A DNA stretch of 64,000 nt from IMG/VR virus record IMGVR_UViG_3300043620_000042; one strand, 5' to 3'. Below are positions 1-64,000 of the stretch, piece by piece. This DNA comes from a virus. The translations under genes were made by a program, and so were the position numbers. The notes beneath the pieces are model-generated. The model searched no databases. It was not told where the DNA came from and saw nothing but the letters and a program-made list of their open reading frames with translations. Position 1 is the first letter of the stretch, and each line of letters opens with the position of its first letter.

Positions 1-758
1 TTGTCCTTAAGGATTTTGGGCAGTTGGCGAACGGTCGCCAATGGGTCTATTCTCTTGTCGAATATCCATTTGGCGAAGTCGGACATCTCGAAACCGTTCT
101 GGGCAAGCGCCGTCTTAACGTTGTTTTTTTGGAGTTCCACGAAACCGCTGAAGCGGCGTGGATCGAAATCACCCTCGGACGGACAGAGTGGGCGGTAATG
201 GGCTTCCATGTCGGCGTATGCGTCAATGCTTTCCATCACGGCCTTTTGGCTGCCGCCGCAGAAATCCACGAGCGTGGAAAAGGGCAGCTTTTCGCTATTC
301 CTGAGGTACGTTAGGTACTTGGCTTTGGAGTACGGGTCCCATTGGCGCGGACCGACGAGGTGTGCCTGGAGCCGTATCGCCTCGATGGCGGCGGCGTCCA
401 GGTTGGTGTAAACAATGGCGGGGATTTTATCCCATGAACCTGCTACCTTTTCGTCGAGGAAAGACTTGTACAGACACACCCGAGTGTTGCCCTCGATGCA
501 GATTTTCTTACCTTCCGGCAGCGTGTTGAGGATAACTGGCTGAATTATGCCGCCATTGGTCAGGATCGAGCTCTTGAGCGTACTGAATTTGGTTCCCCCC
601 TGGTTCTCCTTGTCGTCCACTCCCGCGCCGAGTGCTTGGTGGATCTGCGCGGGGGTTGGCTTGCCTTCATACATTTCAAGCCACATCGCGATCCTCGGAT
701 TCGAGGTATCAAGGGTGATCTGATTTACCGGGACGAGTTGGTGGGTGCCTGTTTGCAT
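1..758 (-). CDS. ParB/Sulfiredoxin-like domain protein, runs off window start (missed by ORF track)
   Basis: Manual translation from ATG at 758: MQTGTHQLVPVNQITLDTSNPRIAMW...LKSSILTNGGIIQPVILN...IEGNTRVCLY...AIRLQAHLVGPRQWDPYSKAKYL; open to position 1. ParB-like NPR / I.P..V / EGN.R motifs; clear paralogue of 62852..63868. Confidence 0.8.
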   Translation of the reverse strand, partial: MQTGTHQLVPVNQITLDTSNPRIAMWLEMYEGKPTPAQIHQALGAGVDDKENQGGTKFSTLKSSILTNGGIIQPVILNTLPEGKKICIEGNTRVCLYKSFLDEKVAGSWDKIPAIVYTNLDAAAIEAIRLQAHLVGPRQWDPYSKAKYLTYLRNSEKLPFSTLVDFCGGSQKAVMESIDAYADMEAHYRPLCPSEGDFDPRRFSGFVELQKNNVKTALAQNGFEMSDFAKWIFDKRIDPLATVRQLPKILKD

Positions 759-832
759 TGTGTGTTAGGTGCGCTGGGGCGCTTGGGGGGGCAAGAGACG
801 TGGCGTATCGCATATGGTGCTTCCTATGAAGC

Positions 833-2230
833 TTAGGCTTTCGGACGGGGTGGTGAGGCGGCGGGCCCCTTTTGCGCCTCGCGAAGGAGGAGTGAGAGGA
901 GCGCGGAGTAGGTAGCCGTGCCATTGCCGAGAATTTTGCGGAATTCGGTGCGATGTCTTTGGCTGAGCTTTCGTGGGCCGTTTTTGGCTATGAACGTCCT
1001 CGCTTTCGGCCAGTCGACGGTATGCCCGTTCAACTGCTGGGCGACTGTTTCCCTGCGTTTGCGGGCCCGTTCTGCCGAGCGCTCGCGGCAGGTTCTCGCT
1101 ATTTTTCTTGCGGATGGGCAGAGGTGGGTAACTAGATTGGAATAGTGGACGTTCTGCTCGAAGTCATCCCGCCGCCCGTTCGGGATTAGTTTTGGTGAGA
1201 GCACGTGGCACTCCCCGATTGTCCAGGCGTTGAAGCGTGGTTCAGGGAATAGTTGGTCCATGAGCCGTGCACTGCCGATTTGCATGTTTCCAGAACGCAC
1301 TCGAAGGCCTTCCATTCCGTAGCGTTCCGGGATGGCTCCCAAGTATTCGCCATGCAAAAACCACCCGACCGCATCTGTTTCGCCGGAAAGTCCCTTGATC
1401 TCGACGTACTCTACGTCTGTGAATTTGGACGTAGCTTTGGGCTTCGGTGTGTATGAGTCTTGGTACGGCCGGAATACGGCGATGCCGTTTAGGGTTAGGT
1501 TATAGGCGCTGCCCGCCCTGTGCTTAGCGAGGAACTGTTGGATTTCTGCGCCGAATGAAAAGGACGGGCAGAAAGGGACCGGGGCGACCTGTGCGAGATA
1601 GTGCCGAATCGACGTTTCGCTCATGAGCGAATCAGTTTTATTTCGCACAACCTGACGCATTTCAATTTCGAAAAAGTGATTTGGGTAGCTTTTCGCCGGC
1701 GATGAGGAAAGCTCGACAACCTGTTCCAAAATCTCCTGAACAGTGAGATCGGCCGGATCCCGAAGCAACTCTTTCAGTCTCTTGCAATCCCAGTGCATGC
1801 ACGAGGCTTCCGAGTCGTCTGAGTGTTTAGAACGCATTGTCAGCGTCTGGCAATAGCCGAGCCCGGCCAGCCGTCCGATTCCGCGGAAGCCCCGTGCTGC
1901 CGTGCCGCGCTTCTTGCTGGCACCTATCGCGGTGAGGGTATTTGCAAATGATAATCGGCGTATGCCAACGCCGTAATCCCGGATCGTGATAGATCTCTCG
2001 GCTTCTGCTGCGTTGGTCTTTATATCTATTGGCGAGACCGACATAGGCGTCCGGAGGCCGGCGGCTGTTGCTTGATCGAGGGAGTCGGCTGCGTTCTGAA
2101 CGTACTCCCGGTAGATTGACAGCGGTTCGGTGTACATTCCACTGCTGAGCAGTTCCAAGGTGTCCTTACCAATTGTGACTGGCCCATTGAATCTGATACG
2201 GGCCGGTTGTGTTTGCGTGTTTGTTGACAT
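833..2230 (-). CDS. GHKL (HSP90/MORC-like) ATPase
   Basis: Bergerat motifs: YREYVQNAADS (ExxxNxxD), IRDYGVGI (DxGxG), GFRGIGRL (GxxGxG). Confidence 0.85.
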   Translation of the reverse strand: MSTNTQTQPARIRFNGPVTIGKDTLELLSSGMYTEPLSIYREYVQNAADSLDQATAAGLRTPMSVSPIDIKTNAAEAERSITIRDYGVGIRRLSFANTLTAIGASKKRGTAARGFRGIGRLAGLGYCQTLTMRSKHSDDSEASCMHWDCKRLKELLRDPADLTVQEILEQVVELSSSPAKSYPNHFFEIEMRQVVRNKTDSLMSETSIRHYLAQVAPVPFCPSFSFGAEIQQFLAKHRAGSAYNLTLNGIAVFRPYQDSYTPKPKATSKFTDVEYVEIKGLSGETDAVGWFLHGEYLGAIPERYGMEGLRVRSGNMQIGSARLMDQLFPEPRFNAWTIGECHVLSPKLIPNGRRDDFEQNVHYSNLVTHLCPSARKIARTCRERSAERARKRRETVAQQLNGHTVDWPKARTFIAKNGPRKLSQRHRTEFRKILGNGTATYSALLSLLLREAQKGPAASPPRPKA

Positions 2231-2232
2231 TA

Positions 2233-62781: not shown

Positions 62782-62851
62782 AATTTATCTCTTGCTCCAA
62801 TGAAAATGGTTGAGCTGCGCTTGGTCGGTCTCGGCCCCGGGGCTGTCGGGT

Positions 62852-63868
62852 TTATGCTTGGCGAGCAGCCTTCAGTAAGGTCGTCATCTTTCCCTTAATT
62901 TCTTTCAGCTCGAAACGCAGCTCCTTCTTCACGCTGTCCGGGGCGCTTTTGACGGCGTCCCGCGTGCCACTCGCCGCGGCCCAAGAACGGAACGCTCTGA
63001 GCCTTTTGACAACTGCGTTCTCGCCACCTATGGATTTGGCGTTTTTGTATGCTTCATCAAGGCTGCCGCCCGAGATCACCTGCTTGATGGGATTCTCGGA
63101 TTTTGCGCCGCAAACCACCTTGAGTTTCTCCCTGACTTCCACGGCTTTGATGTTTCCAGATTTGATTTTATCAACGATCACTTGCTCGAACCCGCTGTGG
63201 TTTTCACGCGCCTTTTTTATGGCCGAGCTTTTCAGGAGTTCGTCGTAGTGGCTCCAGCGCGCGATTGCATTATCCCCGTGTTTTATCATGAAATCGATGA
63301 CGCTTATCCGGTGGCGGATGAGTTTGTCCCCTAAGTTGAATTCCTTTTGGAGCGTCGGAATGCTGATGCCCTCCTTTCGGTGCCGCCTATGCAGGAATGA
63401 TGCTTGCTCGTAAGGGCGCCAATCCTTCTTTCCTTTGAGATGAAGTTGGCCCAAAAGTGAGGCGATTGCGCTATCGGTAACTTCCTTCGGCAGAACTGCA
63501 CATTTGACCTTCTCCCATTGGACGGCGTTGTCGATTGCCAGCAGGCGATAGGCGGCAAGGCGGCTATTGCCCTCTACGACTTCAAATGTGTTTTCCTTGA
63601 CGTAAAGAGGTTCTATTAATCCTCCGTTCTCTTTAATCTCTTGCTTGAGTTCTTTCACATGCTCAAGTGTTTGGAGATGCTCCTCTATTTCCTCTTGAGT
63701 GGGTGCCTCGCCGTTCCCGTCGTGCAGTGCGGAATAAACCCGGGGGTTATCCTCGTAGAAGCGGAGATCATTGTGCTTCAGGTCGCATAACTTCGCGATG
63801 TATACTTTGCCGCGGATAGTTATTGCGGTTGTGGATGGGGCAGGTTTCAAGGTTTTCGACGCACTCAT
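62852..63868 (-). CDS. ParB/Sulfiredoxin-like domain protein
   Basis: DNPRV, IKENGGLIEPL, VVEGNSRLAAY, QLHLKGKKDWRPYEQA. Confidence 0.8.
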   Translation of the reverse strand: MSASKTLKPAPSTTAITIRGKVYIAKLCDLKHNDLRFYEDNPRVYSALHDGNGEAPTQEEIEEHLQTLEHVKELKQEIKENGGLIEPLYVKENTFEVVEGNSRLAAYRLLAIDNAVQWEKVKCAVLPKEVTDSAIASLLGQLHLKGKKDWRPYEQASFLHRRHRKEGISIPTLQKEFNLGDKLIRHRISVIDFMIKHGDNAIARWSHYDELLKSSAIKKARENHSGFEQVIVDKIKSGNIKAVEVREKLKVVCGAKSENPIKQVISGGSLDEAYKNAKSIGGENAVVKRLRAFRSWAAASGTRDAVKSAPDSVKKELRFELKEIKGKMTTLLKAARQA

Positions 63869-64000
63869 ACAATTGGGGTTTTGGGAGTTTCTGACGGGTG
63901 CCGCAAGTTCAAAATCGCAGCCAGCATCGCGGAGAATTCGTAGGAGATTTCTTTATCGAAGCTGCGTTTGTCGATATCGCCTTGACCGAGTTTGGCGGCG
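63865..64000 (-). CDS. 3' end of an upstream gene (partial)
   Basis: Manual translation ...AAKLGQGDIDKRSFDKEISYEFSAMLAAILNLRHPSETPKTPIV*, stop overlapping the ParB-like ATG. Confidence 0.55.
   Translation of the reverse strand, partial: AAKLGQGDIDKRSFDKEISYEFSAMLAAILNLRHPSETPKTPIV

Follow-up and report, generated by a model that had tools for sequence, protein, structure and literature searches.

Two gene trios at the ends of a viral contig are most likely the halves of one eight-gene mobile system with two partner-bound GHKL ATPases

Do two look-alike gene trios at opposite ends of a viral contig represent rival versions of one cassette with a swapped enzyme, or parts of a single system? 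The question is raised by IMG/VR record IMGVR_UViG_3300043620_000042, of which a stretch of 64,000 nt (hereafter the window) was analysed. Six genes, all on the minus strand, form a trio at each end of the window. The original prediction assigned them to one modular family with a shared GHKL+ParB core and an exchangeable SAM-dependent enzyme, carried by two elements at the same tRNA site. A seventh gene of the system, the tail of an SNF2 helicase at the right end, had been overlooked in that reading. The features are the following:

2233..3831, minus strand: radical SAM enzyme (rSAM), 532 aa, which opens the locus
833..2230, minus strand: GHKL1, a predicted Hsp90/HtpG-like GHKL ATPase (HATPase_c_3), 465 aa
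3..758, minus strand: ParB1, ParB/Srx-like, first 252 of about 336 codons, truncated by the window start
63865..64000, minus strand: C-terminus of an SNF2 helicase, last 44 codons, entering from the right side of the window
62852..63868, minus strand: ParB2, ParB/Srx-like, 338 aa, the closing gene of the cassette
61219..62781, minus strand: GHKL2, a predicted paralogous GHKL ATPase (HATPase_c_3), 520 aa
60266..61225, minus strand: PP_RS20740-family protein (PP), predicted Trm1-like methyltransferase fold, 319 aa, which closes the locus
4409..5587, plus strand: WYL/WCX-domain regulator

The rSAM and GHKL1 genes are spaced by 2 bases, GHKL2 and the methyltransferase-like gene overlap by 7 nt, and the SNF2 stop overlaps the ParB2 start (ATGA). 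The WYL/WCX regulator (Pfam WCX, E-value = 5.6e-16; WYL, E-value = 9.8e-8) is divergent from the rSAM gene and had 0 homologues across 163 related loci; it is possibly a local regulator, a neighbour outside the conserved parts of the system. AbiV, an integrase, a capsid-forming element and toxin genes also lie near the system in the window.

The resemblance between the trios is real. BLASTP aligned ParB1 with ParB2 at 27% identity over 228 columns (E-value = 4e-15) and GHKL1 with GHKL2 at 27% identity over 348 columns (E-value = 1e-31), both far above chance. The ParB motifs NPR, LK..I..NGG.I.P, EGN.R (as EGNTR/EGNSR), W.K and Q.HL.G...W.PY..A and the ATPase motifs RE(Y/F)VQNA.D and GFRGIG were recovered in these alignments, and the gene orders given for the left (rSAM-GHKL-ParB) and right (ParB-GHKL-MTase) ends were correct. 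Both ATPases pass the HATPase_c_3 cut-off of 25 bits (41.9 bits, E-value = 1.3e-10 for GHKL1; 35.7 bits, E-value = 1.1e-8 for GHKL2) and their boxes REYVQNAADS/REFVQNAYDA, DYGVG/DKGLG and GFRGIG are invariant in homologues. From the N-box, the G1 and G2 boxes and the Pfam matches, both are predicted GHKL (Bergerat-fold) ATPases. A profile search of the PDB with GHKL1 led to HtpG/Hsp90/TRAP1 N-domains, while GHKL2 presented weak PADLOC matches to TmtA and NCBIfam matches to a BbrUII/HgiDII-type restriction enzyme and to Hsp90.

Concerning the left-hand SAM enzyme, the motif C175-x3-C179-x2-C182 carries three cysteines that are invariant in 30 homologues, and all four rSAM subtypes retain C(I/V)RxCxFC. 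The match to Pfam Radical_SAM (PF04055) is limited to residues 172-238 and, at 24.5 bits, falls short of the 29.5-bit cut-off, so the protein is a divergent superfamily member; NCBIfam gave weak matches to class B rSAM and MiaB/RimO families at residues 165-240. In the AF2 model (pLDDT 84) the barrel is preceded by a Rossmann-like domain, of a type known from B12-binding proteins or MiaB, and a helical domain lies at the C-terminus. Its best Foldseek matches were MiaB, MgmA (9ccb), TsrM, OxsB, CysS and TokK (TM 0.41-0.50), class B enzymes and MiaB thus both being among the top ones. Judging from the CxxxCxxC motif and the modelled fold, we consider the protein a predicted radical SAM enzyme. 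In the model it resembles class B (cobalamin-dependent) enzymes and MiaB/RimO in having a radical SAM barrel after the Rossmann-like domain, but it differs from both by low identity (11-17%) and TM values of 0.36-0.50, and its sequence-profile match spans about 50 residues around the cluster motif only.

The right-hand third gene had been called a SAM-methyltransferase, and the structural model agrees with this. No Pfam match was obtained for the window copy, and its score against NCBIfam PP_RS20740_fam (NF047698; E-value = 6e-8, 32.4 bits), being below the curated cut-off of 200 bits, indicates a distant relative of that family. The AF2 model has a pLDDT of 91 and all the top Foldseek matches listed were methyltransferases; VIA-align against Trm1 gave Z scores of 16.0 (3axt) and 14.3 (2dul). 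Atlas neighbours of the protein carry PF28273, PF20553 (Methyltransf_35) and TRM domains, and the invariant residues G38, D46, E61, D120, G123 and G124 fall at the positions of motifs I, II and IV, with D120-Y-S-G123-G124 conserved at motif IV. The protein is thus predicted to have a Trm1-like class I SAM-methyltransferase fold. It shares with Trm1, the tRNA G26 N2,N2-dimethyltransferase, a Gly-rich loop and an acidic residue after strand 2, and its D-Y-x-G-G motif after strand 4 occupies the position of D-P-F-G in Trm1. The two are only 10-11% identical, and PP in every case has a GHKL ATPase as its partner. The family's namesake, PP_RS20740, is a hypothetical protein that came up in a furfural-tolerance screen (PMC9630843).

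The ParB-like proteins belong to a cassette of four genes, ParB1-nuclease-SNF2-ParB2. ParB1 scores 16.6 bits against ParB_N, below the cut-off of 26.3, with weak PADLOC matches to PD-Lambda-5_A and PDC-M38A; ParB2 has no Pfam match and a weak PADLOC match to PD-Lambda-5_A (E-value = 1.4e-7). Translation of 63865-63999 matches the C-terminus of the SNF2 protein in a related locus (L001), with AAKLGQGDI followed by ..SYEF..ML..IL. In that locus, where the full-length ParB1 relative is 336 aa, the SNF2 protein harbors SNF2-rel_dom and Helicase_C, resembles ZorD/DpdE helicase cores, and matches ZorD (E-value = 2e-47) and DrmD. The small protein of the cassette, which lies outside the window, had no Pfam or PADLOC match; with P51-D52 and G66-E67-A68-K69 invariant in 20 homologues, it is a predicted PD-(D/E)xK nuclease.

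Which of these genes belong together was assessed across about 190 loci. In 88/88 homologous loci the gene immediately before GHKL1 (upstream) is rSAM, and in all 54 loci the one immediately after GHKL2 (downstream) is PP_RS20740-like; six apparent exceptions to adjacency are artefacts of ORF calling or frameshifts. The conserved units are therefore rSAM+GHKL1, GHKL2+methyltransferase-like and the four-gene ParB cassette, and the GHKL+ParB pair that had been proposed is not the conserved core, since each GHKL is tied to its own enzyme and the ParBs sit in a separate cassette. Each of the three units is conserved internally and their order is shuffled between loci, e.g., rSAM-GHKL1-GHKL2-PP-ParB1-nuclease-SNF2 in L002. 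The rSAM+GHKL1 pair is the near-constant core, to which are added a DGQHR/DndB-like protein, the ParB/SNF2 cassette, the GHKL2+methyltransferase-like pair and a pair of PIN_8 nuclease and GHKL3. GHKL2/PP and PIN_8/GHKL3 were never found in the same locus (0/46), and the interchangeable part looks to be this second GHKL pair, with either a methyltransferase-like protein or a PIN_8 nuclease.

The phylogenies point the same way. The GHKL tree has four clades that match the partner type (rSAM, methyltransferase-like or PIN_8 nuclease), GHKL1 falling in a clade of 76 rows with rSAM upstream and GHKL2 in one of 50 rows with PP downstream (support 100 for each). ParB1 belongs to a clade (support 100) whose other members all lie just before a small nuclease or SNF2 gene (14/14), and the ParB2 clade (99/100) consists of members located directly after SNF2 (17/17). 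GHKL1 and GHKL2 are therefore partner-specific clades and ParB1 and ParB2 position-specific ones. The phylogenetic check that had been suggested for the swap thus returned two GHKLs in different deep clades with fixed partners and no swap inside any clade, and the likeness of the end trios is old paralogy within one system. What stands of the modular family is a set of related GHKL ATPases with different enzyme partners; an exchange of enzymes on one core does not stand. Nor are the SAM enzymes alternatives to each other, as both occur in a single operon of the closest relatives, and of the 14 GHKL2-PP pairs flanked by 4 kb or more on each side, 12 have rSAM in the locus, as does G439.

It is most likely that the end trios are two halves of one eight-gene mobile system, not rival versions with a swapped enzyme, and that each of the two related ATPases is bound to its own SAM-using enzyme. 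In the closest relatives the order rSAM-GHKL1-ParB1-nuclease-SNF2-ParB2-GHKL2(-methyltransferase-like) is contiguous; an ENA contig of 18,616 nt encodes proteins of 532, 466, 336, 138, 498 (SNF2), 337 and 519 (GHKL) aa, all in one direction. The closest relative, with proteins 76-82% identical, has every part in one run with a single cassette. By blastn, five relatives (L001, L002, L005, L086 and L089) each match both window ends within 7 kb on one contig, and we found no sign of the two elements initially supposed. Together with the SNF2 tail at the right, this contiguity argues that one locus has been cut inside ParB1-nuclease-SNF2-ParB2 and that the window holds its two ends. The contig may represent a unit of about 66 kb that is circular or tandemly repeated, or may be circularly permuted in another way, so that the two halves would be physically adjacent. 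Against such a join, about 2.0 kb (L001 6138-8157) is required between the ends and the joining stretch is itself absent from the window, while the whole contig is 64,626 nt, i.e., just 626 nt longer than the window. A complete circular unit, moreover, would normally assemble whole.

These points bear on another explanation, which is unlikely but is the closest defensible version of the earlier idea of two related cassettes. The left end would belong to an rSAM-GHKL1-cassette system and the right end, about 56 kb away, to a separate cassette-GHKL2-methyltransferase system; each would possess a ParB1-nuclease-SNF2-ParB2 cassette of its own, and the contig would have broken at both ends because these cassettes are near-identical repeats. 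Both contig ends do lie inside the same cassette, as they would after a repeat-induced assembly break, and the missing 1.4 kb, otherwise without explanation, would be accounted for. Six-gene versions without GHKL2/PP do exist (L005, L007), genome G001 has no PP anywhere, and L089, with its upstream side not covered, has GHKL2-PP and then a cassette. However, a second cassette is absent from all 35 sampled loci with SNF2, the closest relative keeps all parts in one run, and a right-hand system lacking rSAM would be unusual, since rSAM is nearly always near GHKL2-PP.

As for what the single composite locus does, we infer a defence-like function, and the locus might be a mobile, restriction-modification-type system that serves defence or DNA modification. 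Both GHKL ATPases could work as ATP-gated dimeric clamps, each delivering its own enzyme partner to nucleic acid. A base modification might be made or read jointly by rSAM and the methyltransferase-like protein, and a translocating effector would consist of SNF2 as the motor, the small PD-(D/E)xK nuclease and both ParB-like proteins, which putatively bind NTP. Sporadic spread (of 401 Acidobacteriota genomes, 7 have rSAM and 2 have PP; of 401 Verrucomicrobiota genomes, none has PP), occurrence on plasmids (L019) and on 30 IMG/VR contigs, and the adjoining AbiV, integrase and capsid-forming element suggest a defence-like context. A DNA-directed role fits with the ZorD/DpdE/DrmD-like SNF2 protein and the DpdB/DndB-like DGQHR protein of relatives; RNA could also be the target, given that the methyltransferase-like protein is closest to Trm1. 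We estimate a probability of roughly 60% for this explanation as a whole, i.e., one composite locus, the join and the defence or DNA-modification mechanism.

A non-immune role appears rather improbable. The locus would then be a housekeeping, epigenetic or RNA-modifying module of a mobile element. Its rSAM and Trm1-like protein would modify tRNA, rRNA or DNA of the element itself for regulatory purposes, and its ParB/SNF2 proteins would act on element DNA during partition, entry exclusion or the restart of replication. Among solved structures, the nearest folds are indeed those of RNA-modifying enzymes (Trm1 for PP, MiaB/RimO among the top matches of rSAM), and rSAM is more conserved than is usual in a defence gene, the 30 homologues being 57-86% identical to the window protein across phyla. 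The occurrence of the rSAM+GHKL1 pair alone in 4/46 loci also counts against the main explanation given above, and roles of plasmid ParB-family proteins in partition and exclusion are on record (Maindola et al., 2014, as cited in PMC10853773). On the other hand, the distribution is sporadic (<2% of genomes), the modules are shuffled, the nuclease add-ons (PIN_8, PD-(D/E)xK) and the ZorD/DpdE/DrmD type of SNF2 fit poorly with housekeeping, AbiV and toxin genes lie in the neighbourhood, and the rSAM N-terminal domain lacks, across the 30 homologues, the invariant cysteines that a second cluster of the MiaB type would need. Two mobile elements at one tRNA site with an exchangeable marking enzyme (rSAM or methyltransferase) are very improbable, despite the homology of both pairs and the predicted SAM-enzyme folds of both third genes, because neither a tRNA nor a tRNA fragment was detected in the window (ARAGORN; with Rfam, no hit reached the gathering score anywhere in the window, and none had E ≤ 1 around the integrase/AbiV and WYL regions), GHKL-ParB adjacency is confined to the closest relatives and comes from abutting modules, rSAM and the methyltransferase-like gene share single operons, and each GHKL clade has one partner type.

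The eight-gene system is apparently undescribed, as a search of named systems and literature returned no named system or paper describing the locus. PADLOC gave no match for rSAM, GHKL1, the methyltransferase-like protein, the small nuclease, PIN_8 or GHKL3. The matches of GHKL2 to the ATPase head of Tiamat TmtA (E-value = 7e-7, weak), of SNF2 to Zorya ZorD and DISARM DrmD and of ParB2 to PD-Lambda-5 are at domain level only, and the full gene set of none of these four systems is present. Dpd is a 7-deazaguanine DNA modification and restriction system composed of DpdA/B/C and the helicases and nucleases DpdD-K, DpdA being a TGT-like transglycosylase. Like the system presented here, it is a mobile multi-gene set with base-modifying enzymes (predicted ones in the present case), a ParB-superfamily DGQHR protein and a DpdE-like SNF2. 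The DGQHR gene is absent from the window's own locus; in L019 (7232-8305) the domain scores 149.6 bits (DpdB, E-value = 1e-17), and the relatives' protein reaches 63.8 bits against DpdB, whose cut-off is 300. No DpdA/TGT-like gene was present among the annotated genes of the window locus or L019, which places them outside Dpd. Here the putative modifying enzymes are rSAM and a protein of predicted Trm1-like fold; both are paired with GHKL ATPases, a component that Dpd lacks.

Dnd/Ssp phosphorothioate systems combine the ParB-superfamily protein DndB (DGQHR) with an iron-sulfur DNA-modifying set and separable restriction modules that are shuffled (PMC10853773). The present system is similar in its putative ParB-superfamily proteins, predicted iron-sulfur enzyme and separable, shuffled modules, but there is no DndA/C/D/E-like gene among the annotated genes, and the rSAM has the true CxxxCxxC motif, whereas DndC is a PP-loop protein. 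MORC/paraMORC ATPases, finally, occur on mobile DNA in restriction-modification operons that also encode SWI2/SNF2 helicases, nucleases and methylases, and Iyer, Abhiman and Aravind (2008; PMC2292703) proposed that they act on DNA jointly with restriction-type machinery. That paper does not mention ParB or radical SAM; our locus has ParB-like proteins and a predicted radical SAM enzyme. The sequence matches of the ATPases described here cover the N-terminal ATPase domain, the best being to Hsp90/HtpG N-domains, and the methyltransferase partner is predicted to be Trm1-like, in contrast to the Dcm/Dam-type DNA methylase of MORC operons. Both combine a GHKL ATPase, an SNF2 protein, a methylase and a nuclease in a mobile context, the last two enzymes being predicted ones in our locus.

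The two look-alike gene sets at the left and right ends of the window are most likely the ends of one composite eight-gene locus.

Genes of the window.
3-758, minus strand: ParB-like gene (ParB1), left end, extending past the window start
833-2230, minus strand: GHKL ATPase (GHKL1), left end
2233-3831, minus strand: radical SAM enzyme (rSAM), left end
4409-5587: WYL/WCX regulator, divergent from the rSAM gene, with a 577-nt spacer
57050-58228: integrase
58636-59325: AbiV-type HEPN gene (E = 6e-29), flanked by the integrase and the system's right half
60266-61225, minus strand: gene for a 319-aa protein (PP), right end
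61219-62781, minus strand: second GHKL ATPase (GHKL2), right end
62852-63868, minus strand: ParB-like gene (ParB2), right end
Right end, reading frame overlapping the start of ParB2: C-terminus of an SNF2 helicase, the seventh gene

Close homologues of both ATPases share the same short contigs. An 18.6-kb ENA contig encodes, all in one direction, proteins of 532 (rSAM), 466 (GHKL), 336, 138, 498 (SNF2), 337 and 519 (GHKL) residues, and the gene order in the related locus L002 is rSAM-GHKL1-GHKL2-PP-ParB1-small protein-SNF2. Using blastn, single contigs of the loci L001, L002, L005, L086 and L089 matched both window ends within 7 kb, and the minus strand of the window, once circularised, reproduces exactly the gene order of the closest relative. 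When the window is closed into a circle, the cut of the locus falls within ParB1-small protein-SNF2-ParB2. Both halves being carried on single contigs of relatives, the original prediction of two separate cassette variants was not upheld. The tRNA site that the two elements were supposed to share was not recovered either, as ARAGORN detected no tRNA in the window and Rfam gave no gathering-score match in it and none at E ≤ 1 near the integrase/AbiV and WYL regions.

One operon contains both ends of the contig, so the entire contig may represent a unit of approximately 66 kb, circular or tandem, and such a unit with a stretch left unresolved by the assembly is the simplest reading. Linking the ends requires approximately 2.0 kb, the 64,626-nt contig has 626 nt beyond the window and the join itself was not seen; if there is one unit of ~66 kb, approximately 1.4 kb, comprising the small nuclease and most of SNF2 as known from relatives, would be missing from the assembly. 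A search for homologues with the full-length ParB1 did not return the contig's own ParB1 among the 120 matches listed. The main rival is that two neighbouring systems, each with its own near-identical ParB/SNF2 cassette, broke the assembly; against it, no sampled locus holds two cassettes.

For the census of gene units, 80 genome loci were collected with the GHKL1 profile and 79 metagenome loci with the GHKL2 profile, and all ORFs of the collected loci were labeled using phmmer. GHKL classes were assigned by best phmmer match together with the tree; jackhmmer fused GHKL1, GHKL2 and the third GHKL clade (GHKL3) in one profile. The rSAM gene lies directly upstream of GHKL1 in 88 of 88 cases (three further cases were ORF-extension artefacts), and a PP_RS20740-like gene follows GHKL2 directly in 54 of 54 (three further cases were frameshifted ATPases). 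The small protein and SNF2 lie between the ParBs in a single block, which can precede or follow the rSAM pair and occurs in both orientations. Feature counts were made in GHKL1-anchored loci with full 10-kb flanks.

Features of the 46 GHKL1-anchored loci with full 10-kb flanks.
rSAM in locus: 46/46
Any ParB-superfamily gene in locus: 32/46
DGQHR/DndB-like gene before rSAM: 26/46
ParB/SNF2 cassette in locus: 21/46
PIN_8 nuclease and third GHKL clade in locus: 13-14/46
GHKL2 in locus, PP gene detected or not: 10/46
GHKL2 pair and PIN_8 pair in the same locus: 0/46
rSAM+GHKL1 pair alone: 4/46

The rSAM pair is the constant part, and the second GHKL pair carries either the methyltransferase-like protein or the PIN_8 nuclease. 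It is only in this modified form that the idea of an exchangeable enzyme holds. Members of the third GHKL clade are always preceded by a PIN_8-domain protein of approximately 640-660 aa (L013, L019-L021, L026, L030, L031, L035, L038, L042, L046, L050, L063, L081 and L084). Other arrangements were also observed. A variant cassette (L015, L020, L021, L040, L047 and L076) carries three ParB paralogues in tandem ahead of the nuclease and SNF2, in place of one ParB per side. On one contig (L095:9995-19579), a DGQHR-rSAM-GHKL1 trio converges with a tandem of two different GHKL2+methyltransferase-like pairs. A 185-kb metagenome contig (L086:9644-12351) has a decayed copy, where the first ~118 codons of rSAM are fused to approximately codon 36 of GHKL2; the remainder of rSAM and the entire GHKL1 are lost, and intact copies of the methyltransferase-like gene, ParB1 and the nuclease come next.

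The likeness between the two ends was borne out, both for the ParBs (27% identity, E = 4e-15) and for the ATPases (27% identity across 348 columns, E = 1e-31), and the motifs originally listed were found within both alignments. In a quick IQ-TREE phylogeny of 157 GHKL proteins (LG+G4), four clades correspond to partner type: rSAM upstream (76 rows, support 100*), rSAM downstream (11 rows, 100*), PIN_8 upstream (19 rows, 92) and PP downstream (50 rows, 100*). The similarity of GHKL1 and GHKL2 reflects an old paralogy, because the two ATPases of the window fall in different deep clades, and the partner swap for which a phylogeny was to test did not appear within any clade. In a tree of 53 ParB proteins, ParB1 of the window belongs to a clade (100*) the remaining members of which all lie ahead of the small nuclease or SNF2, and ParB2 to one where 17 of 17 members follow SNF2. 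As ParB clades are fixed by position, the ParBs are position-specific parts of one cassette and not partners of the ATPases, so that a GHKL+ParB core is not supported. A specific pairing of a ParB with each GHKL was also considered and rejected; the two are adjacent only where modules abut in the closest relatives. Overall, the observation behind the original prediction was confirmed and its interpretation partly supported.

Radical SAM and methyltransferase-like enzymes occur together and do not substitute for each other, contrary to the proposal that they are alternatives: a radical SAM gene is present in the locus for 12 of the 14 GHKL2-PP pairs that have flanks of 4 kb or more on each side. 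It takes three forms, namely the rSAM-GHKL1 pair, a subtype of ~480 aa immediately after PP, and a subtype of ~388 aa immediately before GHKL2 (the same in genome G439). All rSAM subtypes have in common an LLVEP..Y..KYPPLGL N-terminal signature and a C(I/V)RxCxFC motif. The further subtypes (~480, 388 and 650-680 aa; L087:5068-6513, L092:8662-9828, L198:6906-8072 and L159:4599-6644) differ in position relative to the GHKL gene, the ~650-aa form lying after its ATPase and being common on IMG/VR contigs (L173-L192). In an alignment of 30 sequences, rSAM identity was 57-86% between Verrucomicrobiota, Acidobacteriota, Pseudomonadota and others; rSAM is far more conserved than its partner genes, which is unusual for a defence gene. 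In its structural model (pLDDT 84), a Rossmann-like N-domain is followed by a radical SAM barrel and then a helical tail; the model resembles MiaB, MgmA, TsrM, OxsB, CysS and TokK at TM 0.36-0.50. Lacking invariant N-terminal cysteines, it is unlikely to hold a MiaB-type second cluster.

PP has no Pfam match and a weak NCBIfam match (PP_RS20740). In its model (pLDDT 91 with 47 homologues) all listed top Foldseek matches are class I methyltransferases, a comparison not pre-filtered by Foldseek ranks Trm1 first (Z of 16.0 and 14.3), and G38, E61 and D120-Y-S-G-G are conserved at the positions of motifs I, II and IV. Going by the predicted fold, PP is methyltransferase-like, and it is at this level that its original label stands. 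No relatives of it were found on the viral contigs searched; the Atlas lists phage-rich look-alike clusters for it. Concerning the other parts, the GHKL ATPases match Hsp90/HtpG heads best, and the small cassette protein has an invariant PD...EAK, the PD-(D/E)xK signature.

The interior between the window ends is unrelated mobile and toxin cargo, including two RHS toxin loci and a capsid-forming element that encodes primase, helicase, terminase, portal and capsid proteins. The region around AbiV resembles a small defence island. The WYL/WCX regulator, which is not conserved beside the system in other loci, may be a local regulator or part of the neighbouring RHS cargo. Small ORFs past the last gene of the system are not conserved with it in relatives, and in the window's right half promoter and terminator predictions were no more numerous than in shuffled sequence. 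The flanks of relatives have no further gene in common with the window interior, indicating that the system moves as a unit. It is sporadic in distribution: type 1 rSAM was found in 7 and PP in 2 of the 401 sampled Acidobacteriota genomes, and PP in none of the 401 sampled Verrucomicrobiota genomes. It is also present on 30 IMG/VR contigs and on plasmid p8.1d of Agrobacterium sp. rho-8.1 (L019, 3243-15143), as the nine-gene operon ParB1-nuclease-SNF2-ParB2-DGQHR-rSAM-GHKL1-PIN_8-GHKL3 followed by an IS66 transposase. This operon, on the plasmid of a named strain, would be a candidate for experiments. The one-locus reading alters which genes should be cloned together.

The best-supported picture that we infer is of a mobile system resembling restriction-modification. 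In it, dimers of GHKL would be ATP-gated clamps that bring the partner enzyme to nucleic acid, the rSAM enzyme would share its substrate with the methyltransferase-like one, and the ParB-nuclease-SNF2-ParB block would be motor and effector. Caution is due on such a mechanism, because rSAM is so highly conserved and the closest solved folds modify RNA. We give a probability of roughly one in four to the full proposal, a bacterial immune system not described so far. In it, GHKL clamps that are Hsp90-like and paralogous to each other would each bring a different enzyme to DNA; a cobalamin-type rSAM and a Trm1-like methyltransferase would jointly use radical chemistry to install a new kind of DNA base mark, DNA without the mark would be destroyed by a ParB-gated SNF2/PD-(D/E)xK motor, and the second GHKL pair would be swappable between methyltransferase and PIN nuclease. 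If radical SAM chemistry does mark DNA, this would be a new kind of epigenetic self-mark, and Hsp90/MutL-like clamps would have been put to a novel use in immunity; otherwise, the mobile gene set is still a widespread and highly conserved one. A simple rule also emerges for this large and apparently unnamed family: a given clade of GHKL ATPases goes with a single type of partner, be it radical SAM, Trm1-like methyltransferase or PIN_8 nuclease.

The modular family is apparently undescribed. No PADLOC model exists for rSAM, GHKL1, the methyltransferase-like protein, PIN_8, GHKL3 or the small nuclease, and our literature search yielded no description of this set of genes. The radical SAM system Ophion, composed of rSAM, PHP and PRTase, is a different one. 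Among the nearest known systems are Dpd and Dnd/Ssp, which combine a ParB-superfamily DGQHR protein with modification enzymes and helicases (PMC10853773); the defining features of Dpd are absent here, as none of the annotated genes is TGT-like and the DGQHR protein scores below the cut-off for DpdB. The DGQHR protein of relatives is DpdB/DndB-like, and SNF2 is similar to the helicase cores of ZorD, DpdE and DrmD. The MORC/paraMORC ATPases of restriction operons (PMC2292703) are likewise among the nearest known.
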